Below are positions 5,022 to 36,421 of a stretch of DNA of 64,000 nucleotides, piece by piece (the stretch's first letter is position 1; every line of letters begins with the position of its first letter). A model generated the notes under the pieces. It searched no databases. It was given only the letters and a program-made list of their open reading frames with translations, and was not told the origin of the DNA. Source of the stretch: a virus. The stretch lies in IMG/VR virus record IMGVR_UViG_3300045125_000085, positions 1 through 64,000 of that record; one strand, given 5' to 3'. The position numbers and the translations under genes were made by a program.

Positions 5022-5093
5022 GACGGGCCTCGCTATAAGACAATATCTATACCATCCCCCATCGCCGGTAAAAAATACCGATACTAGGCAAGG

Positions 5094-12427: not shown

Positions 12428-13955
12428 TCATAGCAAGGATGCTTGCTAAACGTAAGGATTGATGGAGGGTGCACGCGCGGCACTGGCGAATACACTTTCG
12501 TTGACATTATTGACTAACTGCTCCATGTTCAGTACCAAGTTGTCAAACTGATACTGATTTTGCGCTACGATAGGTGCGAAACAGATTATCACAGAACGAT
12601 GGAGCTACGTACTGGATGATCGGCTGACCCGCTAACGAGAGGTGATCCAAGTCTCACCGAAGATATCCGCCTGGATTTCTAAGCTGTATAACTCCTGACC
12701 ATCCGTAGGTAAAGTCATGAATGATCTCACTCTCTAGCGCTACGGATAAACATGTCATAGTGCCTGAGTCAGGTCTAAACCTGTCAGAGAGTTAGCTGAG
12801 ATGAGTACCGTGCTCATACGTCCACCGATGTCGTCATTAGTAGAGCGTAATGCGATCTTAGTGATCAGTAGCTCCATCATCAGAGCTGGTACCGCCTGGA
12901 TGAGATGGCTGGCTACGACAGTCGCTCTATCGGCACCATTCCAATAACTAGTCATGCCAGTATGATGCTGGGTAGTCTGCTGGGCTTGACCCGGTATGAT
13001 CAAGTTGACTCTTCCAGCTACACCTGGATCTAGTACTTCCAAGTCAGTGAAGCTGAACTGATAACCCGTAGGCTGATTCCTACGTTCACCTAACCAGCGT
13101 ATGAACGGATTCTCACTGATAGGTGTCTCCATCACAGCTTGCTTAGACTTACTCAGAATATCCGCATCACTATTGCCAAACTCAGATAACTGCGAAGATG
13201 TGAAGAAGCCATCGATCACTTTACTAATGTAAGTACCAGGTAAGTTATTCGCTCGATTACTCCGCTGTGGATCTGCACGCAGTACAGTACGTGCATCGTG
13301 AAAACCATCACCAGCATAACTACCGTACGTCATCAGTCGCACCTCGCAGATAGTTAGATTGCATACCACTGAAGACGTCTTGCGGACGCATCAGGTGTGC
13401 ATGTGTCTGCTGGGTGACTGAATGCCAAGTAGGATCGGCTACGACTTGGTAAGACTCGATCAAGCGATCCATCGTCGTATAACCCATAGGGCCATAGTTA
13501 GCGATCTGTTTGCCGATTACCATTACTGAGTTAATGATAAACTGCATCTGCGGATCGATGTGACCACCCATGCTAATCCCAGGGTAGTTAGTATAGCCTT
13601 GGAAGTAGTAGGTATTTTCGGTACCTAGACTGAACTGCACATTCACAATCAATACGAAGCGTATCCTACGCTCCTGCCAGCCATGCGGGATAGCGATTTC
13701 CCTACTAGCATCGACGGTAGCTGTGGGTGAGAGGATTTGACCAGCTACGCCTGAGAGTAGCTGACCAGTGATATGACCTGTACCAGCTTGATCGACACGA
13801 TTGATGACGGTGTTGAGCATCTGGGCATCCAGATGGCTCTGGTAAGGTCTATGGTAAAGCGGGTTATAGGTACCAGACTCTACCATGATGAGTTGTTCCA
13901 CCTGCATCTTAGTGACGCGGTGTCCGATTTCTGGTGCAAAAGGTATTTGTTGCAT
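12428..13955 (-). CDS. picA: PicA/Imp1 nuclear protein importer (phiKZ gp69-like); frameshifted
   Basis: About 510 codons; ESGTY...RPY, IPHGW--RRIRF, GYT, RPQDVF, S-R-NN----Y motifs. Directly downstream of the gp68-like gene. Confidence 0.75.
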
Positions 13956-13960
13956 AGTTA

Positions 13961-13982
13961 GTACTCCTATTAGTACGGGTGA
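13961..13982 (-). promoter_or_regulatory. RBS-overlapping hairpin element shared with chmA
   Basis: TCACCCGTACTAATAGGAGTAC; a near-identical copy lies at 24971-24993. Confidence 0.6.
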
Positions 13983-14007
13983 AATTACTAGCCGAACTGG
14001 CATCCGG

Positions 14008-15554
14008 TTATTTCCAGCTCTGACTACCGATCGTGATGACGAGATCGGCGATATCATTGCGGATGTTGTACGGGACTGAGAGTCGTTGTGTAGGGTTCGG
14101 GCCTACTACGTGCTCTACTAACTCATTGTCGGCAGTAAGCTTCCAGCTATACATAGACAGATTCTCGACTACAGGCATCGATGCTACGGATAGCCATGTT
14201 CACTGGCTTTTGTCCGCTACGTCGACTACCCGTATTCTTCATATACGGGTATAGCTCATCAAGACGATTCCTACGTTCCTTAGTCAACTGTGCACGTGAG
14301 TCCATACCGGATACTCTTAGCTCGTCACTAGAGATATCAGCATAACACGTAGACAGCAAAGCTAAGAAGTGAAAACCTCTAGCCCAGAGTACTGCTTGCA
14401 TGACACCCATGAGGTTGACGATACTAGGCTTACTGAGATAGAGTATGCCTTGCGGAGAGATGGCTGGTTTCATGACCCAGCGGAGTAGAGTGACTTGCGG
14501 ATCCCTGAGAGCGATGCTGTTGAGCACTTGTGCACTAGACACACTACGTTCCAGTAACTCAGGTGTCATAGCCTGACTCAGTCTAAATGCTACTGCTGCT
14601 AGATTAGAGACGCTATACTCTAAAATCGTCACATCACCTATCGAGATGTTGTGCTTGATTTTATACCGCTCCAGTACGGAATGCTTTTCCGAAGGGTCCG
14701 TACCGCCGTCATCGTAGTCCTTATCCTTAATCGGCATATCACTACCAGACTCTGGTGGCTTGATCTTCTGCGTGACGAACTTCCAGACGCTAGTCACTAG
14801 GTTAGCTTCAGGTACATTACCTATACCCGTCAAGTCACCTATGCAAAGACGTCTTACGAACACCATCGCGAGCATCCAGTCAGGAAAGTCTTCCGAGCTA
14901 ATGCCGTCGATGATGTTATCCTTGTTCTGGTTATCATCGCCTATGGCTAAGTCTATATAGAGCTTCAGCTTTTCATACGGCTCAGAATGCAGTACGTTCG
15001 CTTTAGAACATAAACGAAATGCTCTATGTTCCTTAAAGCGTGTACCAGTGTCTTGCCTAGACAGCGTGATGAACTCACCCCACACTGGGATCATAGGGCG
15101 GAAGATGATCGCTAAGCAAACTAGGCCGATATACTCACCTCTAGTATACGTCTGCTCGCGACTAGTCTTCTTATTCTCAGCAGGCTTATACTCATCAGCA
15201 AAACTAGCTGGGATGACGATATTGCTGACAAAGACGACCCAATGCCGGATCCGCTCATAGTCGTGGAAGTTAAGTAACTCTGCGACTGTGTTATTAAGGT
15301 CTTGCAGATAAACTAAAGCTTCGTAGTCTATACTGAGCTGATCGTAGATTCGCTTATACAGACTAAAAATGTAATCCTGCTCTTGTAGACTAAGTCCTGC
15401 CCAGAACTGATTGATCTGAGCGAATACGTCTACGTCTTGGAAAAGGCTTAGTAGTGAAACTACTGATCCTAAACTCTAACTTGCCGTCACCATGCGAGAC
15501 GAGTATCGCAGGTTTACTCGTCGGTGATAGCAGGTTGATGATTTCTGCTTTCAT
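14008..15554 (-). CDS. nvRNAP sigma-like promoter-specificity subunit (phiKZ gp68-like); frameshifted
   Basis: F-QINQFW, RPMIPVWGEFI, VRRL, LDELYP and PVN-A segments resemble gp68; synteny agrees. Confidence 0.85.
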
Positions 15555-15582
15555 GTATCTACCTCTTGCTGTATGACTGATG

Positions 15583-16077
15583 TCACTTCTTGTATAGCTG
15601 CATTGCCAGCTTTAGATTATCATGGTCTTTAGGCAGACCACGCCGCCGTACCATCATCCGGTACCAAGATACTAGCGCTTCAGGTGTATCTACTTTTACA
15701 CCGTCGATGACTTGGGTAGGCTGCTTTATTTTACCTTTGACCTCTGCAAAGAGCACAGGGTCGTAAAAGAGCTCACACCAGTCACCGATTTGTAAGCGTG
15801 GTTCGTTATTGAGCTCGGAGCTACTTAAACGAAGTCTACGATTACGTGCTATCATTTCCAAAGCTTCCTTGCTATCCACCATGCCGTCCACATCACCGGC
15901 AGTCTCCTTAGCACCGTAGATCGCTAAGGCAGATCCTGCTGATACGGCTATATGCTTGAGCTCATCTTCATTGAACTCTTTACGCATACGTGTAAGTATT
16001 TGCTCACCCGTCATAGGTTGGGCTGCTGCTAGCATCTCTAACGAGAGATTAAACCAGCTCTTTCTTTGGAAAAACAT
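15583..16077 (-). CDS. Pol-beta superfamily nucleotidyltransferase-like protein
   Basis: AGSAL-YG----GDVD (GS...DxD) and C-terminal R--PKD-D motif. Confidence 0.6.
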   Translation of the reverse strand: MFFQRKSWFNLSLEMLAAAQPMTGEQILTRMRKEFNEDELKHIAVSAGSALAIYGAKETAGDVDGMVDSKEALEMIARNRRLRLSSSELNNEPRLQIGDWCELFYDPVLFAEVKGKIKQPTQVIDGVKVDTPEALVSWYRMMVRRRGLPKDHDNLKLAMQLYKK

Positions 16078-16165
16078 GCTAAGTCTCCTAAGTGTCGACC
16101 GACCACGTAGAGCAGTCGGTCGAGTCAGTCCGATACGACATCGCTTCGATACCTACAAGAGTAGG

Positions 16166-16182
16166 CTCATTATTAGTATATG
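16166..16182 (-). promoter_or_regulatory. Early promoter motif for the NTase-gp68-picA-gp70 unit
   Basis: CATATACTAATAATGAG. Confidence 0.7.
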
Positions 16183-16216
16183 TCGTCATATTTGGCTGGA
16201 CGTGCGCATACTTAGG

Positions 16217-16916
16217 TTAAAACGGCACATCGTCATCGAACATCAAGCCACCTTCTTTACTCGGTGCATCTGAATCAAAGCCACTGGCTTTACGGGCAGG
16301 TGGTTGATTCGCAGGAGTATTGTTTTGACCACGTGATACAGGTGGTGGTGGGTTCAGCAAATAGTTCGCTAACAGATGTCCGTAGACTTGACGCAGCAGA
16401 TTCAGATGCGCCATAGCGGCTAAGCGTGATCCTTCTGCTTCAGTAATGACGCTGCCATCATTGTGATAGATTTTGTGCCATTCCGAGACTTGGAACGTAA
16501 ACTTGATCTTCGGTCTATTCTCAGCCGTCACACTCAGCCAGATCAGCTGGTTAGCATCTTTACCTATCCATACTTGCGAGTTCAGGATACGATCACCCGT
16601 AGGCTTATTATCCTCATACCGCGTCGTATAGCAATCTATCGCTTGTTTGATTTCATCCTTAGTACGGATGACGCTTTCAAACACTGTCAGAAAGATGTCA
16701 AACATCTCAGGCGACAGTCCTGCATAAATGATGCCTCTACCGATCGTATCGTTAGGGTCATTAGTAAAGACCGTGATACGCGGATTACCATCTCTAAAGC
16801 CGAATGAGAGCTTAGAGCGTACATTCTGCATACCAGGTGCAGGTGTGAACATCTGCAATCTTACAAAGTCTAAGATCTTAGTCGGGCCAGAGATCGCGTG
16901 GGGTCGTGTCAGTCAT
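16217..16916 (-). CDS. chmC: ChmC-like nucleus-associated nucleic-acid-binding protein (phiKZ gp67-like); 5' frameshift
   Basis: NPRITVFTNDPND motif, disordered C-terminal tail, position upstream of the gp68-like gene. Confidence 0.65.
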
Positions 16917-17014
16917 GATACTGCTCCTATTAAAAGGTCGTGGTAGAGTATGACCACCGCCATACGAGCGATGATCATACAGTATGATCCCGGCATATTT
17001 TTTGCTGGAATCCT

Positions 17015-17878
17015 CTATGCCGCCTTAAAAAGACGGCTTAAAAAGTCTTTATCAGGAAAGTCTAAGTCTAAGTGCATCCTTACCGTCATCCACTGCGTCA
17101 TAGGCGTCCACTGCCTGTTCCTAGAGATCTCTAAGATCAGTCGTCTCAGACTCGGTGCGGTAGGGCGTATCAGAGTGTGATCACCGAAGACATAAAGCAG
17201 CGGTCGATAAAACGGTAAGGTCTGCATAGGCTCTTTACTGAGCTCATAATACTTAGTGTACCGCATAGACTCCCTAGGCTTAAACTTACCCGTATGTGAC
17301 TCTAATAGTACTAAGCGATCGAACTTAGTATGCTGAGTCAGATCCATAGGCACATGCGTGATGATTAAGCTCTTAGTCCGCTTATCAGGGACGACTGCAT
17401 CCTTGACAGCTAGGTATTCCTTATTAGAGTTCTGCTTAATCAGCTTAGCTAGCACAGTATGCCATCGATTACTGAAGAATAACTGATCGGGCGTATGCTC
17501 TACTCTAGTATCGACGATATTTTGCTTCTGGTGTATAGCTAGTATCGGATACTCGGCATAATAGAAATACGGCGTACATACGCCTTTACCTTCTTGCTCA
17601 AAGATAGAGCTGATGACATCCAGCTCATGTTCTAAAGCTTCGAGTAAGTCACGCTCAGAGGCTGCTTTAAATTGCTCCTTAGTAATCGCTCCTACTAAGT
17701 TACGAAATATCGTAGCTAGATTGATCCAACATGTTTGAAACTGCTTGATATCACCTTTTTCAGGGATAGTGCGTTCAGGATCATACGGTGGTAAGCGGGG
17801 TTCAAATAGGCTTTCTAACGCTAACGATGTACCGATCGCGATCGGAAAGCCACCGATCGTACGGTCTGCTAGACTCAT
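17015..17878 (-). CDS. Conserved Chimalliviridae core protein (phiKZ gp66-like)
   Basis: R--G-FPIAIGTSLALE, WINL-T--RN, LLESHTG, YVFGD. Confidence 0.7.
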   Translation of the reverse strand: MSLADRTIGGFPIAIGTSLALESLFEPRLPPYDPERTIPEKGDIKQFQTCWINLATIFRNLVGAITKEQFKAASERDLLEALEHELDVISSIFEQEGKGVCTPYFYYAEYPILAIHQKQNIVDTRVEHTPDQLFFSNRWHTVLAKLIKQNSNKEYLAVKDAVVPDKRTKSLIITHVPMDLTQHTKFDRLVLLESHTGKFKPRESMRYTKYYELSKEPMQTLPFYRPLLYVFGDHTLIRPTAPSLRRLILEISRNRQWTPMTQWMTVRMHLDLDFPDKDFLSRLFKAA

Positions 17879-19060
17879 GGTAAAGACCTCCTGCGCATAA
17901 GGGCTGGATCGCTCCAGCCCTCTCTGCATTGATTTAAATGACGACTCGTAATCAAGCGCTCCAGCATTTGCTTTTGCAGGTCGGTGCACTCGTGACGAGT
18001 ATGGACTCTATTAAGGAGTAGGCCGGGTAGATTCTCAGCAGTCAAAGTGACGCCTTGGTAGCGATCTAATAATTTACCGCTACTAATAGTCTCTTCTACT
18101 TCTTCATCGACTACCAGCTTACTCCAGTTTAAGAAAGGAAACTGCTGACGTATGCTGTCGAATGCTAAGATAGCCGGATGATCGCGTTTAGCTTTGATCC
18201 GTATATAGCTATCTTTAGGTAACTTCCTGACCTTTTACGCTCTAGGTACTTAGCACTCTCCTCTACAGTCATCAGCTTTAAAGGGTATAGTCAGAAACAC
18301 TTTAGCTCTCGTGTTTTCTCTAAACCGCCAGTCATACTTACCGTCAGGATAGAGTGTACACTCGATACCACCTTTGGCTTCTTCTTCACCGTGAGCTAAT
18401 CTGTCGAAATGATCCTTGCGCTAAGATGCGCTCGTAGTGACTGTGATTATGCACATGTCCTATACTGATGACATAGCGGACTATCTTTAAATAGTCATGC
18501 TCATTATGCACACTCGCCATCATCTGCTGTATAGGTAGCTGGTACTGAAACATCCCGTGCATGACTGCGATATCGACCTGAGCTAGACCTTGCCCCGCTA
18601 AAGCAGCTAATGCTAGTTCATACGTCTTACTAGCTTGATCTGTCCATTCATCCGGAATATACAGGATGCTCATATCCCAGTCCGACATGACTTCTACATG
18701 CAGCGTATTGATATACTGCATATCGACACCACAGCGCATCGCTTTAGCTACGGTATCGAAGATGACGGATTGTCCCCAATCATGCCTAGGTGTACCTTCG
18801 AGTATCCTGAGACGGATATTAGCTTGACTACATAGCTCTAATAACCAAGCTACCCAGACACATGCTTCATGCACGTCAGGAGACTGAAACTCTAGTAAGC
18901 GATCAAACACATCACCACCGAGTACTAATAAGTCTAACGGCTTTTCTTTCCTATAGACGGCTAAGTACTCTTGTAGATTTAAGACTATATCCGCCGTGCT
19001 ATTCCTTCTGTGAAACAAGTGGATATCGCTGATGAATAAACAATGTCTGGGCTGGTGCAT
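17875..19060 (-). CDS. sbcD: SbcD/Mre11-like metallophosphoesterase nuclease; frameshifted
   Basis: SDIH, GDVFD, GTPRHD, MHG, GHVH and GSF motifs. Confidence 0.85.
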
Positions 19061-19062
19061 GA

Positions 19063-19677
19063 TCAGCCGACTTCTTCGTCGTAGTCTATGGTTTCGACAT
19101 TATTAACGCTAGTGACGACATCATTCTGCACAGTCTGAGTCTGCTTACCGTACTTAACCATAATCTCAGCCCAGCGACGTTTATATTCTTCAGGGAGTTG
19201 AGCATCTTTAAGCATGACATCCGCTTTATCAGCATAAGCGGCTTCTAAATAGCGTTCACCTTGAATAGGTATATTCTGCCTATGCATAGCTGCATGCTCG
19301 AATACATCTTTCATAGGCATGCCGTTCGGACGCGTCTGTACATCTAAGTACATCGTCGACATCAGTGGCGGTACGCGAAACAATTCCTTTTGCGTCACGT
19401 CATCTATGACTCTGACTTCAGCAGCAGGAGTACCGGCGATAGCGACCCAGGTACCGACTACACTCGTATCGGCTAAAGAGACCTCACCAGCAAAGTAAGG
19501 CAGGAAGTATTCTCTAAAGACGCTCTCAGGGATACGGCCTAAGACTTGGTCATTATCTACACAAAGCGCATTGAAGACTTTATCTGCGTCCTTAGACATC
19601 TGGGCCATGAGTTGGTTATACATACGGGCTTCTAAGGATTCAGACAGTTGTTCTGCAGCAGTAGGGGTTTGGCTCAT
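19063..19677 (-). CDS. Conserved hypothetical protein (phiKZ gp64-like)
   Basis: IPESVF-EYFLP, W--IAG, LFRVPPL; intact ORF in the core block. Confidence 0.7.
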   Translation of the reverse strand: MSQTPTAAEQLSESLEARMYNQLMAQMSKDADKVFNALCVDNDQVLGRIPESVFREYFLPYFAGEVSLADTSVVGTWVAIAGTPAAEVRVIDDVTQKELFRVPPLMSTMYLDVQTRPNGMPMKDVFEHAAMHRQNIPIQGERYLEAAYADKADVMLKDAQLPEEYKRRWAEIMVKYGKQTQTVQNDVVTSVNNVETIDYDEEVG

Positions 19678-19731
19678 GATGGTATTCTCTTTATTGGTAA
19701 GGGCTATTAGGTACCAGTATTGACAGGCGTA

Positions 19732-20157
19732 CTAGGTGCCTGTATTATTAATCGACGCTACTCTACTAAAGACGCCATTACGTTCTCGTAAGAGTTCATT
19801 CAGCGTATGGACTATACCGGTCTCAGGATCTTTGAAGGCAATGTAGATGACGATCTCGGCAGCACTACTATCGGCTGGAGTATTATCGGCGACATCAGCG
19901 ACGACATCTTCGAAGTAACGACCGAAGTAAAGCTGTAATGCTTGTCTTAGTTGTAAGACAGTTTGCATCATATCGCCTTGCGTAGCTTGGATGATCCAAG
20001 CCATGCTTGAAACATTGCCGACGTATAGTTGGGTCTGGCTGTAATCGGATAAAAAAAAGTGGGCCATTAAGTAGTCCGCTTTTTGCTTGGCATCCGTAAC
20101 CCAAGCATCCTCGGACAGCGCAGGCACTCTCCGAGGATCAGTTAACTCAGTAGCCAT
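19732..20157 (-). CDS. Conserved hypothetical core protein
   Basis: Intact 141-aa ORF with RBS; K-DYL--FF-SDYSQT motif. Confidence 0.7.
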   Translation of the reverse strand: MATELTDPRRVPALSEDAWVTDAKQKADYLMAHFFLSDYSQTQLYVGNVSSMAWIIQATQGDMMQTVLQLRQALQLYFGRYFEDVVADVADNTPADSSAAEIVIYIAFKDPETGIVHTLNELLRERNGVFSRVASINNTGT

Positions 20158-20288
20158 GGCTACTCTCCTATGGATAGAAAAAGACTATACCATAGTGAGC
20201 AGCCATTGCTTTTTACCTTACTGCATCATAGCGTACCACCACTAAGGTTACTGAGAGTATCGCTTACGCGTCCTTCCTTTATATTGCA

Positions 20289-20921
20289 TTACAGCGTACC
20301 GCCACTAGGGTTGGAAGGATCCTCCCCGGCATCTATCGCCATCCTGATGATGTCCCAAGTACGCACGATGTCTAATCGCTCAAACGTATCTAGTTCTCTG
20401 TCACCGGGTAAGAGATCTTCAGCATACTGACGACTGTACCAGCTAGGTTGTCCATCTACTTCATCCATTACGACTACGCCATCCATGACTCTACGCCAGT
20501 TATAATCCGCCTCAGCTATCTGACCAGGACTAAAGTCAGTCGTGTACAACTCACCATAGCCGTGACAGCGTTGTTGGATATGTAGCTCTCTTAGATCAGG
20601 TTGCGACATATTCCACCGCATCATCAGAGGCGGTGCGGCTTGCAGCTGCTCTAAAGTCTCTAAGTACACGATTTTATTCGGTGCAAATAAAGACTTAGCT
20701 GAGCGGACACGGCTCGTGCGAGTTGCGCTGCTTCACTGTTATAGATCTGTTCATAGACGCTACGTGAAGCCGCCATAAAGGCACGACCACTATCAGTCAA
20801 GGTCGCATTGACGCGATCGAGTTGAGACTCGATATATTGCTGGTTGATCGGATTCTCTTTGACGGTATAGGAGAGCATCGAACGCGCCATTACCGCCATA
20901 GACCACATTCGCGATAGCCAT
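20289..20921 (-). CDS. Conserved hypothetical core protein; frameshifted
   Basis: MAIANVVYGG...LQAAPPLM-RW...RRVMDG...EDPS. Confidence 0.7.
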
Positions 20922-20924
20922 ATT

Positions 20925-21100
20925 ACCACTCCGCGTATACGGGTACGCGCCCTTCTTGCAGGCATCTTTAATTTCTCAGCTGGTGTCAGATCTTGCTGCT
21001 TATGCTCTAACGCTTTCGTCGGTATCGTTTTTACCGTAGGTGTCGGCGATAGGATTTTATCCACTTTAGCCAACTGGTCTTTCTTGGTCGGATCTATCAT
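20925..21100 (-). CDS. Small basic hypothetical protein
   Basis: MIDPTKK... with RBS; fused to the next gene in the ORF track, probably through an indel. Confidence 0.35.
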
Positions 21101-21135
21101 TATCGTTTACCCTCTTTTGTATAGATAGTAGCGTT

Positions 21136-21456
21136 TTAGACAGGCAGGACATCGCTCCTTATTAATAGTAATAGGTTTTGCTGGACGTCGACTTTAAATG
21201 CCTGATGCTCTATCGGTAAGTAGGAAAAGTCCGGTGGCGTTAAAGGTGAGCGATGCTGCATACCGCGTATCAACATCTCTTCAGCTAAAGCGTCGTGTCG
21301 TGTAACATAACTCATAGGTTCGATTGCATTGCCAGCGATACGTCCGTTTATACGGACTTTACGTTGCCAGCTAGGCAGGAACTTATGCAGTTCACCATGT
21401 TCACCGAGCAAATGCTGATTGCATAAATAGCTCGGTGGTACCATCCACATCCTCAT
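21136..21456 (-). CDS. Pyrimidine-dimer DNA glycosylase/endonuclease V family protein
   Basis: MRMW-V-P--LC-QHLLGEH-ELH...RH--L--EM--RG--H-SP; ATGA overlap with the beta' stop. Confidence 0.75.
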   Translation of the reverse strand: MRMWMVPPSYLCNQHLLGEHGELHKFLPSWQRKVRINGRIAGNAIEPMSYVTRHDALAEEMLIRGMQHRSPLTPPDFSYLPIEHQAFKVDVQQNLLLLIRSDVLPV

Positions 21457-22927
21457 GCGTCAGGCAGTGCATTAAAGCGTGCTATCTGCTCTGCCGTAAA
21501 CTCATACCCTCTACGACTCGCTATGAAGTTCGAGATCGTGGCGACTACTGGCTTCGGTAAAGCGATACTACCTGAAACTTCACGTGGTCTAGTCAGCTCG
21601 AACACATTCTTATGCGGAGCTAGACCATACCATCGTTCTGCCATGTAGTGGTCTATAGCTAGACTCACGTTCATCTCGTCACCGTCAAAATCAGCATTAG
21701 GTGCCTTAGTGATCAAGATAGATATACTGATGGTATTATCATGCACATCGGTCTTGAACTTAGTAATGAACACTCTTTGTGCAGAACCTGCTAGCAGTGA
21801 TGGATTACGCTGGATGATGCAGACGATACGACGATCAGGCGATTCATACAACAGTTCATTCAGTAGCTTGTCTAGCAAGGGATGATACTTGTAGACGTGT
21901 CCATAGAGCATACCTATCGCATCATTCTGAGCGATACCCATCTTCATCAGCTTATTCAGTAGATGTGGCTGAAATGCCGTAATGCCGACTGACCATGGCA
22001 CATGGATCTCATCATAGGCATGATCATTCGTCAAAGATGAAATCACTGCTCTGAATGAGAAGTGCGACCTAGTACCGAATACATGCTTACGGGAATATAC
22101 CTGGCTTCTTAGACAAAGATGTCTTATAGAAGTTAAAGTAAAAGTCCGACAGCTTAGAGAGAGCCTTTACCGTCCTACGTTCCTTAGTCTTGACTGAGTA
22201 GTCTGAGAATGGGCTATCTATACCAGCGATCATCATGATCGCATCGATAGCTCCTACGTGGATAGGGTCTATCCATCTACCTGTACAGTTCTGCTCTAGG
22301 ATCAGTAGTGATTTATTCGGCAGCGGGATGTAGTGGCTGAATATACGCTCAGGAAAATCCTGCAGTAAGTGATACAAGTAATCAGTTTTGACTTGGCGCT
22401 TCTTCTTAAACTCCTTGTGATTAAACAAGATAGCCATGATGTCGTTGAAGTGGTCTATGAAGTAATTATAGCCACGCTCTACGCCCATCTCAGCTAGCTC
22501 ATTGATTATCACTGGCTGTTTTACATTCGGTCTATATGGTGCTGTCGCAGATCCACTGAATGATACTGAAGCCAGACTTAACGAAACGCTGATCTAGCAT
22601 GTACCAGATAGTAGGATTGATCAAAGCTCTGACCCCTTCCGGTGCTCTGAACCAGACTAAAGGCTCGATATCTTCATTAACGATCGAGCGCACTGGCTTA
22701 TGACAGTATTCGCACTCCACCTCGATGGCAAACTCACCTTTAGTCCTACCGCAATGACAAGACGGCAAGATAGAAATCATGTCAGTAGTATAGCGAGACA
22801 TGATTAGGTTGCGGATATAGTCACGACTATCCTCGAACACATTGCCTAGGTCATTGATGATGATAGGCGGAGATCTTAGCTGGGTGACTAGTTCGTTTAA
22901 ATCTACTAACTCTTGATAGACGGGCAT
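21453..22927 (-). CDS. nvRNAP beta' N-terminal/catalytic subunit (phiKZ gp55-56.1-like); frameshifted
   Basis: Zn ribbon C-CG...C--C, RNPSL, catalytic NADFDGD. Confidence 0.92.
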
Positions 22928-22949
22928 TGTATACCTCTAGTGTTGTAAT

Positions 22950-22966
22950 GACATAGATACTATATG
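22950..22966 (-). promoter_or_regulatory. Early promoter motif variant
   Basis: CATATAGTATCTATGTC upstream of beta'-N. Confidence 0.5.
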
Positions 22967-23015
22967 TGGTTTTATACGCATCCACATACAGTGTGTGGTA
23001 CTACTAAAAAAGTAC

Positions 23016-23058
23016 GGCATAAAGCCGGGAGAGCCCGATGAGGCTCTCCCGGCTATGC
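23016..23058 (-). terminator. Hairpin terminator after chmA
   Basis: AGCCGGGAGAGCC-loop-GGCTCTCCCGGCT flanked by GCATA/TATGC. Confidence 0.8.
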
Positions 23059-23071
23059 TCGTCCTTACTCC

Positions 23072-24966
23072 TTAGTACCGGCTATATCCACTATAGTACC
23101 CACGATTCGTAGTCTGGTAACCGAGGTTATGAGACAAGAAGGATTGTCCTGCACCCATGCCCGGTGCCAGCAGACCCTGACCGACGAAGTCAGCCACACC
23201 ACGCTGCTGATTAAAGTCAGCAGTAGCAGGTGCTTGGATGTTGCAGACCAGACCAGCGTCTACACATCCTCGCACCAAGGCATCCATAAAGTCCTTGCTG
23301 AAGGTCACACGCTGAGCGAAACCCAGTGTAGATCGCATTGTTATGCGTCAGACCATCGATCAAAGCTTTACGATCAGCCAGTCTGATTTCCAGCGGTACA
23401 TCCTTGCGTAAGAATGTATCCGACCAAGCTCTGATGCGAGTAGGATCTTTATCGCCGATGAAGTTAGCGACAGCGAGGTAATCGATAGCCCGGATGTCAC
23501 GCTTCATACCGTTCTTATCCATGTAGTAGCCCAAATGGACCCTATTGAACGGATTGATAAAGACTGGCTTATCCGCCGTGAAGTAACGGCTGAAGTTGCC
23601 ATTGGTCAGATCGTTAGCTGCACGCAGCAGCAGATCCAGCGCATGCTTATTACCGACCGAAGCTTCCTTGAATATGCTGAGATACCAGGTCTGGGATGCG
23701 CATTCCGGTACGTCCATCGAGATCAGCAGTTCCGGTCTATACAGACTAGAGATCAGCTGACCCAACTGTTGCAACTGGAAGCTATCCGACTTAGTGTCGA
23801 TCCGCTGACCGAAGCCAGATTGGTTATTCTCCAGAGTTGGCATCAATATTCAACGCACCGATGTCGTGCAAATCTACACCTTCCGTGTTCGGCGTCATTC
23901 TAAACGCCTGTACCCAGTTATTATCGTCACGAATGGCGATAGATGTAGCCAACCATAACAAAGTCATAGCTGGGGTATAACCGTAGTAGCTGATAATATC
24001 AGTCACTACTAAGTTAGCTACATACCGTTGTGTCGGCATGGCGTACTGCTGCGGTTGATAGAAGTTGTACGCGGTCACTGGTGCAACTGGTGCATACAAC
24101 GTATCGATGAAACCAGACAGTACTGAGATACGTGCTTCCCGCGATCCCATGTTCATCTGGTTAGCTGCTTGCTGCGCCTGATCCTGACGCATCTTTGAGC
24201 TAAATGCTACCAATACGTCTGAACGTATCGGCTCACCGACTACACCAGTCAGATCCTGGCGTGCGAACTGTACGGTGCATGTGAGGTCTGCACCTTTATC
24301 CGCCATACCCAGGTTAAAGTCCTGAAAGCCAGGCTTACGTACTTCAATTTCCATATTAGAAGCGGTAGTGGCATTCAGGGCCAAGTTTTTGACACCGGCT
24401 TTATCCTCAGGGTTAAAGGAAGCTGGTACAACGCAGCCATCGGTCATGATCAATGTACCGACAGGGTATTGTTGCCGGACGCGTTCTTTGACACGCTTAA
24501 GCAGTTCATCATTCATGGCGTCGCCAGTGACGCGCATGATTTCTACCTGATTCCTACCAGGCATGGACTGCCAGATAGGTGCCGGTTTTTCACCAGTCGC
24601 TTCGATGATGAGGGTGTGATAGCCTATACCCAGATCACCGAAAGTCTTACTACGCACACATACTACTAAGCAAGAGTAGTTCAGCGCAGTGTATACTGTG
24701 TTGTCCACAGCCAAGATAGCTATTTCACTATCCTTCATCTGTGGATCTTTGCAAGCCTCTACTAAAGCTTGTTCCAGTTTGTTGAGGTACTCAGACCCCA
24801 TGCCCGGTGCGATCGGTGCACCGAACAATGCAGCACCGTGGAAGCTCCACATCGGCATTTGTTGTCTGGGTGGTTCAGGCTGCTGCGATGCCATCTGTGG
24901 CTGTTGAAAGCCAGTAGGTGCATTGGCGGCAGGGGTAGGGCGGATGTTTTCGTCTTTAATGGCCAT
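23072..24966 (-). CDS. chmA: Chimallin, major phage nuclear shell protein; frameshifted
   Basis: About 630 codons directly upstream of beta'-N. DIGALN, RVHLGYY-D--G--RDIR-IDYLA, ARRVTF-like region and QRG tail. Confidence 0.88.
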
Positions 24967-24970
24967 GTGT

Positions 24971-25087
24971 GTACTCCTATTTAGTACGGGTGATTTTCAG
25001 AATGTATGTCCTTCGCATGCATGCAGATAGGTCGCCTCCCGCGCCTATTTGAACCCATTCTGAGTGTAGGTTCATAATTAGTATATG
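24971..25087 (-). promoter_or_regulatory. chmA early promoter and structured 5' UTR
   Basis: CATATACTAATTATGAA at 25071-25087; hairpins TGAACC/GGTTCA and ATAGG..CCTAT; RBS hairpin at 24971-24993. Confidence 0.7.
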
Positions 25088-25144
25088 AGTCCAAAATGTG
25101 CTCGAATCGTCATATCGACGACATACTGCAGCATAGACCTAGTC

Positions 25145-25313
25145 CGTCATAACGGTCTAAAGCACTATGGCTTTAGACGCTCTATGTCATGCAGACATAA
25201 GATACAGTCTAGCTAGACCAGACTGCTACTAAGACGCGATGTCTGGAGCGAATGATCTTCCACCGTCCATTGGCACCTTACCGCTAGGGTGAGGTGGAAG
25301 AGTCCGTATGACG
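25145..25313. ncRNA. Candidate structured non-coding RNA
   Basis: Closing helix CGTCATA(A)CGG/CCGTATGACG encloses about four hairpins in an intergenic region with no ORF. Confidence 0.35.
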
Positions 25314-25355
25314 ATTCTCTCCAAATAATCATACTGCTTACGTATTTTTTCTGGT

Positions 25356-26522
25356 ATGGCATCCTCTCAGCCTCGATTATCGTTTGACTACTCCATCATC
25401 CTAAGTACCATTATGCAAAGGCATCACCATGTTGGATCTTTTCTCTCTACCTCCGTCGCTGAGGTCACGATCCCTAGCGACCCTTTGTTCAGCTACTTAC
25501 GTGCGTCGTATAAGCGTGAGATCGCCGACATAGTCAACTACTACCAACAGAGGGTGTATGCCGTACGTAACAATCATCTATTAGCTAGAATCCTGACATC
25601 GCTGAGTATCCCGACGCAATATGAAGCTATGCAGTATGCTAGTGTCGCTGAGACACGAGCAGCTTATATCGCTAATAGTTTTCGCATGACTAGCGAGTTG
25701 ACTGCCGGACATGCTTTTGACGGTGTGTTTTATGGACCTGGTAGTCCTGAGGTATTACTGCATAGGGATTGCTACTTCGACCCTATCCATGCGAGTAAGC
25801 ATTGGCGGCATATCTCAGCTATTCAAGTGCATAGACATCCGCAATCCCATCTAGGCTTATTATTAGCTAACGGTAAAGAGACCTGTAGTGAAAGTGGCAT
25901 AGGGGTCATTAGCGTTAATATCGGATTGCTAGCTATGCAGTATCGTGGCTTTATATTAGAGCAATACCGTAAGCTGCAGAACCATAGTGAAAGCTTACTC
26001 GGTATCAATCACTTCATTCACATGAATGTATTACCGCCGATACTGTATCGACATATGGACTATGTGTTAATGAACCGAATGATGAACTTGTTCTACGGAG
26101 CGCCTATGGGTCAGGCGTATCTAAAGCATCCTTTTCTACTGTACGACTATCAGCAAAAGCTAGATAAGTCTTTAGGCTTTTATCTGAAGCATATACAGGA
26201 CAAGAGTATGCGTTATGAAGATATGCTATTAGGAATACCAGCTATCTTTGCTAATACCCAATATGAAGCCTTACAGTTACCTGACTATGCACCGACACGC
26301 CAAGTCCAATGGAGTCTCTTACTCGCTAGACTACCAGTGATCCAGTTTCTGATCGACGTAGGTGGCGATAAAGGCAAACGACGTAATAGTACTCAGCTCA
26401 ATAACCTCAATCGCCATATCACTAGGTTACTTAGAGATAACAGCATAATGCAAGGTCTAAACCCTAGCCTTAGCATAGACTACCAGATCCAGCTAGAAGC
26501 ATTACAGAGATCATTACAGTAG
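25356..26522 (+). CDS. Conserved Chimalliviridae protein (probable virion protein); true start uncertain
   Basis: 388-aa ORF; YYQ-R--AV-N-H-L motif; divergent from chmA. Confidence 0.7.
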   Translation: MASSQPRLSFDYSIILSTIMQRHHHVGSFLSTSVAEVTIPSDPLFSYLRASYKREIADIVNYYQQRVYAVRNNHLLARILTSLSIPTQYEAMQYASVAETRAAYIANSFRMTSELTAGHAFDGVFYGPGSPEVLLHRDCYFDPIHASKHWRHISAIQVHRHPQSHLGLLLANGKETCSESGIGVISVNIGLLAMQYRGFILEQYRKLQNHSESLLGINHFIHMNVLPPILYRHMDYVLMNRMMNLFYGAPMGQAYLKHPFLLYDYQQKLDKSLGFYLKHIQDKSMRYEDMLLGIPAIFANTQYEALQLPDYAPTRQVQWSLLLARLPVIQFLIDVGGDKGKRRNSTQLNNLNRHITRLLRDNSIMQGLNPSLSIDYQIQLEALQRSLQ

Positions 26523-26530
26523 CACTCACC

Positions 26531-26910
26531 TCAGTGAGAAAAGATCTTTAATAAAGGATAGCTAGCGATGACATAGTTACCGCTACTGACCAGCTGATGC
26601 TTCATGTGTGATGTATAGGCTATAGGTGCTAGACGCATACCGTCGTACAAGATGCCAGGTCGTACATCGTTTTGTATTAAGTAGTCTTCTATAGCCTGCA
26701 TATCCTTAGTGGTCTGTAGCTCCATCACAGCGTGCTTGATCGTCAGGTCTACAGACTCATTGAGCAGAAAGACGAGATCTGTGTACGAGATCTCATAGCG
26801 CCTTAGATGCTCTAAAAACTCAAAAGACTCATTACGCTCCTGCTCAGTATACGTGCCATGTATATGCGGGAGTACTTGCTCCTTTACCTCTTTTACTTCT
26901 TGCTCATTTA
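26531..26910 (-). CDS. Hypothetical protein
   Basis: 3' part of ORF 26531-27097; its 5' part overlaps a real plus-strand gene. Confidence 0.45.
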
Positions 26911-26930
26911 CCTGCTCCTGTGAGGATGCC

Positions 26931-27749
26931 ATGTCAGCATTAGCGACTGCATTACGTGAGATCCACTTTTCGATCCCACCCCAAATCTTAGCTTTAACTT
27001 TCGAGCCACCGTCACATACATGGCGGACAGCACCCATTAGCTTAGATGAACACATTTTAACTAAAGTCATACGGCCTCGTGTGATGAGTGATTGCAATTT
27101 AATAGGCGGTGCTTATAGCCTAGTCTCGTTAGAAGGGCTTAACCCTACGTATGTCGATACGTATAGCATGGTCTATGAGATACCTGGTGAGCGTACTCAG
27201 TTTAGAGACATAGTCTCAGTGCTCTCTATAGGCTATCTGCCTTACGCTGGTGCCTATAATGACATGAATCCAGGTATAGGCATGGTAGCACCTCAAAGCA
27301 TGAATGCACTGACTGGAGCTATCCAGCGAGTCGGTGATAGTGTCGGTGGTATCCCACCTATCTCGAATGCTTATGTAGAACTCGTAGGACCTAGAGCCGT
27401 CTTACTCAGAGATCAAGCTCGTGTCACGTCCTCGTACATATTACGCTGTATGTTAGCGAACGATGAGCAGCTGAATAACTTAAACCCTAGATACTGGATA
27501 GCATTCGGTAAACTTTGCATACTGGCAGTACAAGCCTACATTTATAATGAGCTCTATATCAAAATAGATCAAGGCTTCTTAGTCGGTGGTCAGGAGTTAG
27601 GGGCTGTCAAGGAATATGTTAGTAACCTCAGTGAAGCTAACCTTAACTACCAGACCTATCTGTTAGAGAAGTGGCAAGCTTCAGCGTTCATGAACGACAC
27701 TAATGCGTATGATCGCTTTATTAAGTTACAGTTAAATAGTGCAGTATAG
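26931..27749 (+). CDS. Conserved Chimalliviridae core protein
   Basis: MSAL--AL-EI---IPPQIL...KVIRPRV--DCNL-GG...A--AYIYN; GAGG RBS. Confidence 0.75.
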   Translation: MSALATALREIHFSIPPQILALTFEPPSHTWRTAPISLDEHILTKVIRPRVMSDCNLIGGAYSLVSLEGLNPTYVDTYSMVYEIPGERTQFRDIVSVLSIGYLPYAGAYNDMNPGIGMVAPQSMNALTGAIQRVGDSVGGIPPISNAYVELVGPRAVLLRDQARVTSSYILRCMLANDEQLNNLNPRYWIAFGKLCILAVQAYIYNELYIKIDQGFLVGGQELGAVKEYVSNLSEANLNYQTYLLEKWQASAFMNDTNAYDRFIKLQLNSAV

Positions 27750-27750
27750 T

Positions 27751-27793
27751 GCATAGAGCGTGCGTAGGGTATCTAGCCCTACGCACGCTATGC
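27751..27793. terminator. Bidirectional hairpin between convergent genes
   Basis: GCATA..AGCGTGCGTAGGG-loop-CCCTACGCACGCTATGC. Confidence 0.8.
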
Positions 27794-27797
27794 CGTC

Positions 27798-29924
27798 TTA
27801 ATAACCCAGCTCCGATAAAGTCCAGCCTTTCTTACAATAAAAGCCTAGACTCTCTAGTACTAAGCGATACCCATTCGTCAACTCCAGCACGACACGCTTC
27901 GTATCCAGTATAGACTTAATCTCTACTGGTAAGCCGTGTGTCTGGATATAGTCTAAAGGTAAGAGAAACATCCCTATCGCTCCTTTATTATGCTTAGCGA
28001 TCCAATCCCGCATACGCTGTGCAAAGTCTTTATCCTCCATAGTCTCTAACCAGCGTTTAATATCCGTCTTGTTCTCTAGCGTAGTAGGTATCTTAATCGA
28101 GGCATAAGGTGGTGCTGCGATAGGTCCGTACTTAGGCTCGAATACGAAGTTCCACAATAAGTAATGCTGGTACGGCGACTGTGTCGGCGGTAGTGTATAG
28201 CCTGCACTATCCTTAATCATCATACTGCGATAGAACTCTTCTTCACCATTGAGTAAAGACTGAGTAATAAAGCGTTCCATATCAGCTATCCGTGTCAACG
28301 TCTTACGGATAGAGATCTTCTGCCCAGAGGCTGCTGCATCGAGTATACCGTACATCATACCGTGTAGATCTTTAATGAGTCTAAGAGGACTAGCGCTACT
28401 GATGAGATGCACACCTTTTTTCTCATACTCAGGTACAGCAAAGACATTACCTTCCTGATAGATAGTCCTAGCTGCGTAATGTTTAGCGACATTTGTCAGT
28501 AGGAAAGCATCCCAGATAAACTCACCTTTGACTGCTAGCGTATGCATGTACTCTTCAGGAGTATTGATATTCGCTGAAAAGATCGCTAAGATATGTGCCA
28601 TAGTCTGCGTCGTCAGATATGCGACGGCTGATCCTACTGCTAAGGCATTCGCATCTATGACTAAATGACCCTGATACCACTCTACCCATTTATCGACAGC
28701 AAAGCATGAGCTATCTGTATCACTCAAAGGTACTACGCGTCTTAGCATGTGTGGGATCTGAGCGATAGATGCTGGGATATTCTCAGTCAGGAATAGAGCT
28801 TCGAGTAAGTCTTTATACTCAGCGACTACGGCATGGATATGCTCAGCTGTACCGACTATAGTAGTGAGTACGCCAGCCTCATGCATCTTATCGTAGTTTT
28901 TACCCATGCCTTTAATGAGGTCAGAGCAGACTTGATGTGCTAGGAGTAAGATGTCTTCGTTGAAATCAGCTATCTTACTCTTAGGATCAGGATCAGTAGA
29001 GACGACTCTAGTGCTTAACTTAAGTAGTAGCTCTTTAACGACCTCTGGGTTAAAGACTCTTAAGTGATAAAAGTCACCTGTATAGACGAATGCAGCTCTC
29101 TGGATAGCAGTGAGTTTACTGACATAATCAGCGATCTGCTGAAAGTACTGAGCGTCTTTCCAGTATAGATCAGTAGAGTACTGGATCACACTCAAAGTAA
29201 ACGCTACACTCGGATAGACTAAGCCATACTTATCCATCACGGCTTGGAGTGCCGGATAGTCGGTATGTGTAGTAGTAGAGATGAGGTTATTCATCACTGT
29301 ATCAGGCGACCAGTAATGACGATTACCGGCTAGCATACGCTCGTTCGTCGCATTACAGAGTGATACTACCGTACGGGTAATGGAAGTGAGTGTGCTATGT
29401 GCAGTAGGGTTATGCAGAATAGTACCTTCAGTACCAAACGCACCAGACAAGGCATTATTGTAAATCTTCTTTTTGCTCTGTACGTTTTCTTGATACGTGT
29501 GTTCAGCGAGATTACCTTCAGCTTTGGCTTGATGGGATTTCTTCTTAGCAGCAGATCGTAGCTTCTTATTCTTCTCTACGAAACTAGTATAGACTGATCT
29601 TTTCTTAGACGGATGTAAGTACGTCGTAAAGCTAGGTGTCAAGATATCGCCTGACTGCACAGTGTGACGGATATACTGGCTGAGTCTAGTCTCTATGACT
29701 TCCGTATCACCATTATCACCACGAGCATAATGACGTACGGTAGGGTCTATGACTTTATCAGGAGGTTGTTGCTTCAGTATTTCTAAGGTACGTGTCTTAC
29801 ATAGCTCGATAGGATCACCTGTCATAGTAGCTAAGTAATGCGCCATCTGCTCTACATACTGAGCGATAGGATCTATCTGACGCTTATAACTACTAGTCGG
29901 TTTAAGAAACGGATTATTAGCCAT
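27798..29924 (-). CDS. Family B DNA polymerase, polymerase subunit (phiKZ gp50-like)
   Basis: K---N--SG (motif B), SDTDS (motif C), KHY and KGV; intact 708 aa. Confidence 0.88.
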   Translation of the reverse strand: MANNPFLKPTSSYKRQIDPIAQYVEQMAHYLATMTGDPIELCKTRTLEILKQQPPDKVIDPTVRHYARGDNGDTEVIETRLSQYIRHTVQSGDILTPSFTTYLHPSKKRSVYTSFVEKNKKLRSAAKKKSHQAKAEGNLAEHTYQENVQSKKKIYNNALSGAFGTEGTILHNPTAHSTLTSITRTVVSLCNATNERMLAGNRHYWSPDTVMNNLISTTTHTDYPALQAVMDKYGLVYPSVAFTLSVIQYSTDLYWKDAQYFQQIADYVSKLTAIQRAAFVYTGDFYHLRVFNPEVVKELLLKLSTRVVSTDPDPKSKIADFNEDILLLAHQVCSDLIKGMGKNYDKMHEAGVLTTIVGTAEHIHAVVAEYKDLLEALFLTENIPASIAQIPHMLRRVVPLSDTDSSCFAVDKWVEWYQGHLVIDANALAVGSAVAYLTTQTMAHILAIFSANINTPEEYMHTLAVKGEFIWDAFLLTNVAKHYAARTIYQEGNVFAVPEYEKKGVHLISSASPLRLIKDLHGMMYGILDAAASGQKISIRKTLTRIADMERFITQSLLNGEEEFYRSMMIKDSAGYTLPPTQSPYQHYLLWNFVFEPKYGPIAAPPYASIKIPTTLENKTDIKRWLETMEDKDFAQRMRDWIAKHNKGAIGMFLLPLDYIQTHGLPVEIKSILDTKRVVLELTNGYRLVLESLGFYCKKGWTLSELGY

Positions 29925-30460
29925 TTAGTCACCTTTATAACTTAAGATAGCGTACTTACGCGGTATGTAGAAGAATAGATGCAGGAGCATCTTAGCTACA
30001 TAGTCACCGAACTCAAAACACCAGATCGGTAAGTCATTATGCTTAAACTCAGTACGGAGTTGTTGACTGTTTTGTTCATAAGCTAAATACATGATCGTCT
30101 TAATCGCATTCAGCATATCGCGCTTACTGAATTGATGGCTGTAGTACTTAAGTACGATCTTATCTAGCAAATTATCTAACTGCATACTACGAAAATAACT
30201 ATTGTTGATTTTATCAGCTACCAGCTCTACTCCATTCTTACGTACTAATCCACGGTAGAGGTTAAACTGCAAGAGTAGAGTAGCGTAATGCACCTTGATT
30301 CAGCATACGCTCTAAGTCTTCGAGGATATAGACCTGATCGGTCTTAGTGCAGTAATAGATACCACCATTCGCTTTGACGACAGCGTAGATCGCATCTGGA
30401 TACTTAATGAGTGACGAAGGGTTCTATTTGCAAATAGTCGATGCAGGCGGCGATAGTCAT
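29925..30460 (-). CDS. Hypothetical protein; frameshifted
   Basis: GGAG RBS with ATG at 30460; continuous ORF 29925-30293. Confidence 0.5.
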
Positions 30461-30538
30461 GATGGTAACTCCATAATGGTAAAGGTCTCATAGTGAGATA
30501 CCAGAGCCTGATTAATTATCTGTGCTGAGAAAAAAAAT

Positions 30539-30580
30539 AGAGCATAAGAGAGGGAGAGCCATCTGGCTCTCCCTCTATGC
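30539..30580 (-). repeat. Terminator-type direct repeat, copy 1
   Basis: AGAGCATAAGAGAGGGAGAGCCATCTGGCTCTCC...; near-identical to 31511-31551. Confidence 0.8.
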
Positions 30581-30583
30581 CGA

Positions 30584-31019
30584 TTATGCGAAGATACGCC
30601 GCCATCCTTTCTTCGGTTTAATTAACTGCTCCCTCGCATACCGAGGGAGATATTGCACCTGCGGCCAGATGCAATTCGGATGGAGTACTTTGCAATACTC
30701 CCCTGTAGCTAACTCCACCCCCTCTTCGTAGTACATCCTTGAAAGATTCTCTACCGTGCGTCCTTTCATGGTGATGGGGATAGCCTCCTCAGCATACCAA
30801 CCACTATTAGTGGCTCTAATCCCACGCAACCACGTGAGGTTTTCTTGTCCGTCCTTGATGCGGGCCACGCCCATCCCTCTCCACTCCCCATTAGGGAGGC
30901 GGTACAGTCCGATGAAGAGAAACCTGCCTCTTGGGCACAAAGCCCTTTGGATCGTATCTGACGCCCAAGTATACCTTCGTATACCTGACCCATACACTCT
31001 AACAGTTCTTGCTTGTTCA
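30584..31019 (-). CDS. Orphan early cassette protein (5' frameshift)
   Basis: GGAGG RBS with MNKQELLE; own promoter at 31100-31116 and own terminator. Confidence 0.6.
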
Positions 31020-31099
31020 TAATACCTCCTACGGGCAATGTGCTAGATAGTCTGAACTTTCTACCTAGCTTTATTAATAAAAATTATTGAGCGCGTTTG

Positions 31100-31116
31100 C
31101 TCATTATTACTATATG
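31100..31116 (-). promoter_or_regulatory. Early promoter motif
   Basis: CATATAGTAATAATGAG. Confidence 0.7.
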
Positions 31117-31247
31117 GGTTTATAAAAAAATACAATCGGCATAATAGCCAGGTGTTACCCTGGCCTACTTTTAGCTTTAAAAAGAACCGCTTTAACATCG
31201 TGTAAATGCTAAAGCGGCCAAAGTCATCACAAGAGGAGATTGCAACC

Positions 31248-31497
31248 GTGAATCAAGCTGTCACCATCTGGTACTCAGGTAAAGTAAAGAAATACCGGCA
31301 GGGCTATTCCCCCGTACGAAATAGCCCTACGATGTACCTAGCACAATCGGTACTAAGTATCTATCGTCTTCCTGCCTCTGAGATAATAGGAGGAACTCTC
31401 AGATCAGTTATCGCCAGTACCTTTACCCCACTGCACTCACAGATATAGTACTTGCCTCGTTTTGCATATCATAACTACTCCCATAAAAAAGTAGATA
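31248..31497 (+). pseudogene. Possible degenerate paralog of 30584-31019
   Basis: YSGKVKKY / IYRLPASE / QI*YLPRFA align by eye with YGSGIRRY / LYRLPNGE / QVQYLPRYA. Confidence 0.35.
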
Positions 31498-31510
31498 AGC
31501 AAAAAAAGAA

Positions 31511-31551
31511 AGAGCATAAGAGAGGGAGAGCCATCAGGCTCTCCTCTCTGC
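31511..31551 (-). repeat. Terminator-type direct repeat, copy 2
   Basis: Near-identical to 30539-30580. Confidence 0.8.
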
Positions 31552-31553
31552 TG

Positions 31554-32048: not shown

Positions 32049-32147
32049 AAACCACCTCCATCGGTGCACTTTCTACCGACCGAGCAGATCAGTAGAGGTT
32101 GATTGAAAAATCGATCATTCGCTTTTAGCAGAAACCTCCAGCGATGG

Positions 32148-32187
32148 ATCACTCTTAGTATATGGGTTTATAAAAATCTGCACTTCA
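32148..32187 (-). promoter_or_regulatory. Early promoter with extended upstream element
   Basis: AAGTGCAGATTTTTATAAACCCATATACTAAGAGTGAT; the upstream part nearly matches 5518-5546. Confidence 0.75.
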
Positions 32188-32254
32188 CTAAAGCTAAAAA
32201 ATAAAAGTCGGCATATCGCCCTATGAGCTCATAGGCTCATAGGGCGATATGCAG

Positions 32255-32665: not shown

Positions 32666-32672
32666 GTAGACC

Positions 32673-33743: not shown

Positions 33744-33746
33744 CTC

Positions 33747-36404: not shown

Positions 36405-36421
36405 TAGTACTACCTCTTGTG

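Follow-up and report, generated by a model that had tools for sequence, protein, structure and literature searches.

A near-identical sequence before the start codons of chmA and picA in a metagenomic chimallivirus contig: a candidate module of translation initiation

The shared element at chmA and picA

The window analysed here covers the initial 64 kb of a 144,006-bp IMG/VR viral contig (IMGVR_UViG_3300045125_000085; 45.7% G+C, estimated to be ~49% complete), in which the genes of the nuclear shell protein chimallin (chmA) and of the import factor PicA (picA) carry a near-identical sequence of 22 to 23 nt just before their start codons. The element is present in two copies and exclusive to these two genes in the available sequence, its core is found at both loci in relatives, and both genes lie in early-promoter units. 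The genes and the two copies are as follows.

13961..13982, minus strand: picA copy of the shared element, 22 nt, with the CCCGTA box at 13979-13974, the 5' arm GTACT at 13976-13972, AGGAG at 13968-13964 and the 3' arm AGTAC at 13965-13961
24971..24993, minus strand: chmA copy of the shared element, 23 nt, with the CCCGTA box at 24990-24985, the 5' arm GTACT at 24987-24983, the AGGAG Shine-Dalgarno sequence at 24978-24974 and the 3' arm AGTAC at 24975-24971
12449..13955, minus strand: picA, homologue of phiKZ gp69 (PHROG 3141), frame-broken near 13327-13332 and once further downstream
23075..24966, minus strand: chmA (chimallin), read in three frames in the contig, with breaks near 23834-23836 and 23319-23323

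The copies are 11,010 nt apart and end 5 nt (TAACT) before the ATG of picA (13955-13953) and 4 nt (ACAC) before the ATG of chmA (24966-24964), the sole difference between them being one A within an A-run. A preliminary description of this stretch had reported both strings, their distances from the two starts, the 11-kb separation and the single differing A, all of which proved correct, with the minus strand as the coding strand. By dinucleotide shuffling, the expected number of matches of such a 22/23-nt pair by chance is 0.00, and a fuzzy search of the full 144,006-bp contig on both strands, allowing up to five edits, found no third copy, which extends to the whole contig the earlier remark that none was seen.

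Both genes could be identified with confidence from several lines of comparison. The open reading frame (ORF) starting at 24966 matches the chimallin family PF25677 of Pfam (60.4 and 48.4 bits for its two ORF pieces, cut-off 27) and PHROG 4795, 'nuclear shell protein', and its frames were followed by tblastn with an intact 629-aa relative and with a 90% identical relative, the latter being continuous where the contig is broken. The ORF starting at 13955 matches phiKZ gp69, which is PicA (PMC11087766), in blastp at 3e-16 and 1.5e-12, and lies directly after a gp68 homologue, as in the synteny of PA1C; the PicA proteins of relatives are intact and 501-503 aa long. Both start codons were fixed through N-terminal alignment with relatives, the ChmA start MAIKDENIRP being the same in the closest relative.

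The frame breaks in these two genes are part of a wider pattern, as core genes including chmA, picA and many of their neighbours are frame-broken compared with intact orthologues. Aligning the intact proteins of two related contigs (G001 and G005, described below) to the contig of the window revealed 46 frame changes in 15,415 aligned residues, or about one per kb, concentrated at 0-25 kb (46-24966) and 43-45 kb (42950-45050), with none at 25.4-40.1 kb (25440-40109). At 18 of the 26 junctions inspected closely the change resembles one extra base, and none of the 26 lies in a homopolymer; the breaks are probably an insertion-biased assembly error, though unevenly distributed. At about one break per kb across 0-25 kb, base-level errors are likely near both copies of the element, and the single-A difference between them is therefore untrustworthy and possibly an artefact.

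Retention of the core in related phages

No GenBank phage is close to this one, the closest being Burkholderia phage FLC9 with a ChmA identity of 33%. Protein searches returned metagenomic ChmA sequences at 57%, 54% and 53% identity together with one 90% identical fragment; single-protein locus searches of IMG/VR with chmA and picA returned nothing, and the relatives came from alignment-based searches. G001 is a 50-kb IMG/VR contig (loci L006 and L011) whose ChmA and PicA are 57% and 66% identical to those of the window, and G005 is a 25.6-kb contig in a Methylococcaceae metagenome-assembled genome (locus L026) with 53% and 71% identity, respectively. A further locus, L021, has a ChmA of 40% identity, and a dozen more distant loci were also examined as DNA.

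Comparing the start regions, we found a core consisting of CCCGTA (or CCGTA), 4-9 variable nucleotides and AATAGGAG upstream of chmA in G001, G005 and L021 and upstream of picA in G005, while the start region of picA in G001 has CCCG-AAAATAGGAG instead. CCGTA followed by TAGGA within 12 nt occurs at four sites in L006, L026 and L021, all of them chmA or picA start regions, and has three non-start matches in the contig of the window (288 kb, counting both strands), and a tighter pattern matches only the chmA and picA sites in the 3.5-Mb metagenome-assembled genome of G005. Moreover, a profile hidden Markov model built from the seven sites found no eighth in ~480 kb, the next best match scoring 8.7 bits, and CCGTA alone is no common feature of gene starts, being present in 9 of 213 upstream windows vs ~8 expected by a rough estimate. 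When the 40-nt upstream windows of all predicted genes were ranked pairwise by local alignment, chmA and picA came second of 22,578 pairs in the contig of the window, second of 378 in the G005 contig and 75th of 1,596 in G001. The motif is thus gene-specific within the ~480 kb covered by the profile and does not precede many unrelated genes. Its conservation, on which the preliminary description had staked its proposal, is limited to the clade: the core precedes both genes in two relatives and chmA in a third, and the more distant phiKZ, RSF1, FLC9 and five IMG/VR lineages lack an element shared specifically by chmA and picA.

On the sequence evidence, the element is real, specific to the two genes and specific to the clade, with moderate evidence of constraint. 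That the core is kept at both loci although the proteins are only 53-71% identical argues that the element is functional and that chmA and picA are to some degree coupled, and it probably tunes or co-regulates their translation. The reading we favour, with a probability of about 0.45, is that of a shared translation-initiation module, whose non-Shine-Dalgarno box would be read by some factor or by the ribosome itself and which would give matched or co-regulated early initiation on the shell and importer mRNAs. In its favour, the element is distinct from both promoter-like consensus motifs of this genome, CATATACT and ATG[GC]TATAG.

Several observations weigh against this reading. A model made from the two copies of the window alone recovers the sites of the relatives weakly, the best foreign match being G005 picA with 8.0 bits (E = 2.5), and the chmA/picA pair is unremarkable in phiKZ (rank 138 of 903), RSF1 (98 of 406) and G003 (881 of 2,628), as well as in G004 (125 of 2,556), where there were two candidate ORFs and the wrong one may have been scored as picA. 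In FLC9 the GAAACAAGGA context is common to several other genes and not specific to chmA and picA, and the start regions of L025, G007 and G008 have nothing besides a Shine-Dalgarno sequence. Among orthologues, upstream conservation of chmA and picA between the window and G001 or G005 ranks 4, 7, 11 and 14 of 44, which is above the median and not extreme. Furthermore, the 3' half, AAATAGGAGTA, also serves as ribosome site for three or four other genes, and near-identical upstream cassettes common to unrelated genes are frequent in chimallivirus contigs. Homologues of RegA (PF01818), in the 144-kb contig representing ~49% of the genome, and of CsrA, in the same contig, were not found. Finally, only three or four genomes carry the element, all of them metagenomic fragments, and because these carriers are few and fragmentary, a larger regulon or a trivial explanation is possible.

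A first rival explanation is a good ribosome-binding cassette without dedicated function: short-patch recombination or gene conversion would have carried it from one start region to the other, with recent re-homogenisation in the lineage of the window, and its partial retention in relatives would reflect ordinary start-region constraint and shared ancestry. As would be expected after recent conversion, identity within the genome is far higher in the window (22/23) than in the relatives, and the frequency of shared upstream cassettes in chimalliviruses, the common use of the 3' half as a ribosome site and the unexceptional orthologous conservation all fit this account. What it explains poorly is the retention at both loci of a CCCGTA box that is no part of the Shine-Dalgarno sequence, despite the divergence of the two proteins, and the fact that this box precedes no other gene and that CCGTA is no general upstream feature. 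We therefore regard a copied cassette as rather unlikely, though as an explanation to be taken seriously beside the shared initiation module.

Outside the clade, a strict scan of IMG/VR with the motif gave three chance matches in coding regions, and a looser scan gave more than 118 matches, none near a ChmA or PicA relative, a number as expected by chance in such a database. An apparent motif family before giant tail-fibre-like genes turned out to be a set of related contigs and was discarded. As a third member of a regulon, weak look-alikes at small ORFs (contig 137700 and window 56307) and at an RNA-polymerase gene in L026 were also considered and set aside, as they had no informative family and low profile scores.

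Some side observations were made along the way. The nearest look-alike in the contig, the diverged sequence CCGTAATAATAGCGGAG, lies outside the window at contig 137701-137733 on the minus strand, 10 nt 5' of an ATG; the ORF behind it encodes 89 aa without a family and is the second gene after an early-type promoter at 138016-138023. The contig of G005 (C325), the closest relative with both genes on one contig, was binned in a Methylococcaceae genome, which hints at a methanotroph host for the phage clade or at a binning artefact. In G004, a 165-kb IMG/VR contig (L048-L050), near-identical cassettes of 35-40 nt that reach up to the start codon are common to unrelated genes, in several pairs and triples, and such repetition of 5' modules seems to be usual in chimallivirus genomes. 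The promoter early stem-loop (PeSL) cassettes of T4-type phages are likewise near-identical 5' sequences before different genes of one genome; the element described here is 22-23 nt long, abuts the start codon and serves two core genes, in one case inside an operon.

Start-region structure and transcriptional setting

In the preliminary description the element was taken for a structured operator that sequesters the ribosome-binding site, with GTACT pairing to AGTAC. Such a 5-bp stem is indeed the minimum-energy fold of both copies (-3.8 kcal/mol for chmA, -4.3 kcal/mol for picA), and it covers the last two bases of AGGAG, leaving two of the five Shine-Dalgarno bases paired. Sequestration, in contrast, is not supported, as 118 and 104 of 200 dinucleotide shuffles reach an equal or better energy (z = +0.25 and +0.13) and the Shine-Dalgarno sequence is more open than in the median gene. 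In a 50-nt folding window its unpaired probability is 0.61 for chmA and 0.55 for picA, compared with a median of 0.49 for the 85 genes with a recognisable Shine-Dalgarno sequence, among which chmA and picA rank 61st and 52nd from the most buried. With minimum free energies of -3.8 and -4.3 against a median of -7.5 for these 85 genes, both start regions are among the least structured, and if anything they are open and strong.

Comparison with relatives leads in the same direction. A stem in the same register is present at only one of five related sites, picA of G005, where it reads AGACT/AGTCT with the two outer pairs changed on both sides; these compensatory pairs are weak evidence because two of the five pairs are supplied by the conserved CT and AG. 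The chmA genes of G001, G005 and L021 have instead a short palindrome of Shine-Dalgarno and anti-Shine-Dalgarno sequence just 5' of the ATG, and picA of G001 has neither arrangement. In the RNAalifold consensus of four chmA leaders, compensatory changes support a 5' hairpin and the motif stays unpaired, and the Rfam 15 covariance models gave no match at E <= 1 in window positions 13000-26000.

Like the hairpin operators of the MS2/PP7 coat-protein type and ribosome-site-sequestering hairpins generally, the structured translational operator envisaged originally would gate initiation through a small stem-loop that sits by the ribosome site, and the minimum-energy fold of both copies, the paired changes in G005 picA and the palindromes before the three chmA orthologues are what can be said for it. 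Unlike those hairpins, however, the one found here is no stabler than shuffled sequence, buries only two Shine-Dalgarno bases, is missing in its register at four of the five related sites and is unpaired in the consensus fold, so that this explanation appears improbable. Sites of CsrA/RsmA carry a GGA in a short hairpin loop at the Shine-Dalgarno sequence. Measured against the consensus of these sites, the element shows a UAC...GGA...GUA-like arrangement at the ribosome site, with another conserved GGA of the chmA leader ~25 nt further upstream; it differs in that its GGA straddles loop and stem, its CCCGTA box lies outside the CsrA consensus and the contig encodes no phage CsrA.

The transcriptional setting of the two genes is given by the following features.

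25080..25087, minus strand: early-promoter-like CATATACT (followed by N4-ATGA) serving chmA, a recurrent motif kept before chmA in most relatives
24967..25079, minus strand: chmA leader, ~105 nt, with a 5' hairpin that shows compensatory changes in relatives and the shared element at its 3' end
16175..16182, minus strand: early-promoter-like CATATACT heading an operon of a small NTase-like (nucleotidyltransferase-like) gene, the gp68-like gene and picA
14008..15442, minus strand: gp68-like gene (PHROG 3209; blastp to phiKZ gp68 1.5e-27)
Window 1983, 5103, 10645, 16175, 25080, 32157 and 37061, and contig 117580, 123694 and 138016, minus strand: sites of the recurrent motif CATATACT-N4-ATGA
Window ~20158-20197 (minus strand), 5022-5061 (minus strand) and 42910-42949 (plus strand): sites of the recurrent motif ATG[GC]TATAG

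In phages with a virion RNA polymerase, early promoters are AT-rich with a conserved motif of ~10 nt centred near -10 of the start site (PMC7598289), and because CATATACT fits this description, CATATACT-N4-ATGA, with ~11 sites in the contig, all on the minus strand, is likely the early promoter of this clade. The second recurrent motif, ATG[GC]TATAG, stands ~25-35 nt before several start codons at orthologous positions kept in G001 and G005 and is possibly a promoter used by the non-virion RNA polymerase, given its TATG-like core. The chmA leader is conserved at the nucleotide level in the closest relatives (L006:9880-10000 and L026:7878-7997) and contains, besides the 5' hairpin, a further hairpin that varies and, at window 25015-25024, the invariant palindrome GCATGCATGC, which is unique in the contig. 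The spacer between gp68 and picA (window 13956-14007, minus strand) measures 52 nt, compared with 32-33 nt in G001 and G005; the element occupies its 3' half, and the extra 20 nt sit directly upstream of it. As the element thus lies in the 3'-terminal part of the long chmA leader and, for picA, within an intercistronic spacer, its position is set by the start codon and not by the promoter or transcription start.

Another explanation is a role at the DNA level, either as a second promoter or start site for middle or late transcription by the non-virion RNA polymerase, or as a palindromic operator for a dimeric DNA-binding protein. ChmA is required for the whole duration of infection and phiKZ gp54 belongs to several transcription units (PMC10914365), GTACT-N6/7-AGTAC resembles an operator, and a start-site element would tolerate the variable spacing of 4-9 nt between box and Shine-Dalgarno sequence. 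Two sites in 144 kb are nevertheless far too few for a class of polymerase promoters, and this scarcity, the difference from both recurrent promoter-like motifs (for the early promoter from the full CATATACT-N4-ATGA) and the absence from both copies of TATG, which in phiKZ late promoters used by the non-virion RNA polymerase overlaps the transcription start site (PMC7598289), weaken the promoter variant; the inverted repeat required by the operator variant is unconserved, with a spacer that differs by 1 bp between the copies. On balance, a DNA-level element has little probability compared with the shared initiation module. An RNA-processing site, at which an endonuclease would separate picA from the message of gp68 and shorten the leader of chmA in analogy to T4 RegB, which cuts at GGAG, would suit an A/U-rich, single-stranded segment that lies just 5' of a ribosome site, once within a polycistronic message and once in a long leader. 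It leaves unexplained, however, why only two GGAG sites would be targeted, and is very improbable.

A possible reader and the meaning of the element

In the shared initiation module that we favour, the mRNA would present, in surroundings of little structure, an ACCCGUA box upstream, then a short spacer rich in A and then a UAGGAG Shine-Dalgarno sequence placed 7-8 nt 5' of the AUG, and would thereby confer the same initiation behaviour on the chmA and picA mRNAs. A sequence-specific factor, be it a small RNA or a protein of phage or host, might dock at the ACCCGUA box and co-regulate the synthesis of shell and importer in early infection. Action in translation, the existence of such a reader and the direction of its effect are the parts of this mechanism that we infer. 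A more specific version, in which the box is the operator of a dedicated post-transcriptional circuit coupling shell protein and import factor through a sequence-specific reader, possibly ChmA or PicA themselves as assembly-sensing autoregulators, must be called doubtful.

The closest precedent for such a module are the RegA operators of T4 and RB69, which, like the element, are linear sequences overlapping the ribosome-binding region of several early phage mRNAs. As with RegA, a shared sequence lies in the initiation regions of two genes from early units and its core is kept in relatives; RegA operators are read on the RNA and coordinate translation, and the same is proposed here. The element differs in having two known targets and an unrelated sequence, in a contig without a match to the RegA family.

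ChmC was suggested as reader in the preliminary description, and a ChmC-like gene does lie 2 kb from picA in the window. In PhiPA3, enhanced crosslinking and immunoprecipitation (eCLIP) characterised ChmC as an RNA-binding protein enriched near many start codons of phage mRNAs, with little specificity and no motif (PMC11077065). The element marks only two genes, whereas ChmC binds many start regions without a motif, and such broad binding is therefore a poor fit to a two-gene operator, though compatible with one; nothing links the motif to ChmC. Of the proposed dedicated operator that couples shell and importer synthesis, the specificity for two genes and the retention of the core at both loci thus stand, and the sequestered ribosome site and the ChmC reader are not supported.

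Other ways in which the element might act on the mRNA were considered and rejected. Pairing between mRNAs was suggested by a 10-nt complement of the box inside chmC (window 16592-16601), which is unconserved in relatives and within chance expectation. An ORF that opens with an ATG within the promoter motif has its stop codon in the TAG of the chmA element and could have pointed to termination-reinitiation at an upstream ORF; the closest relative lacks this ATG, which is probably at or upstream of the transcription start, and picA has no equivalent. Extended pairing with the 3' end of 16S rRNA was discarded too, as by inspection against the E. coli tail only AGGAG pairs.

Published work on nucleus-forming phages describes promoters and the broadly binding ChmC and no gene-specific post-transcriptional control. 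The value of the present finding is limited by the fact that the clade is seen in metagenomic fragments only, that the element is not in the model phages and that its function is deduced. The question it addresses is how nucleus-forming phages set the timing and balance of their first proteins for shell construction (ChmA) and for import through the shell (PicA), and a six-base box beside the ribosome site, limited to two genes and kept at both loci in the clade, offers a concrete, mutable handle on the coupling of shell and importer. If true, the coupling circuit would mark the first description of gene-specific translational control in a nucleus-forming phage.

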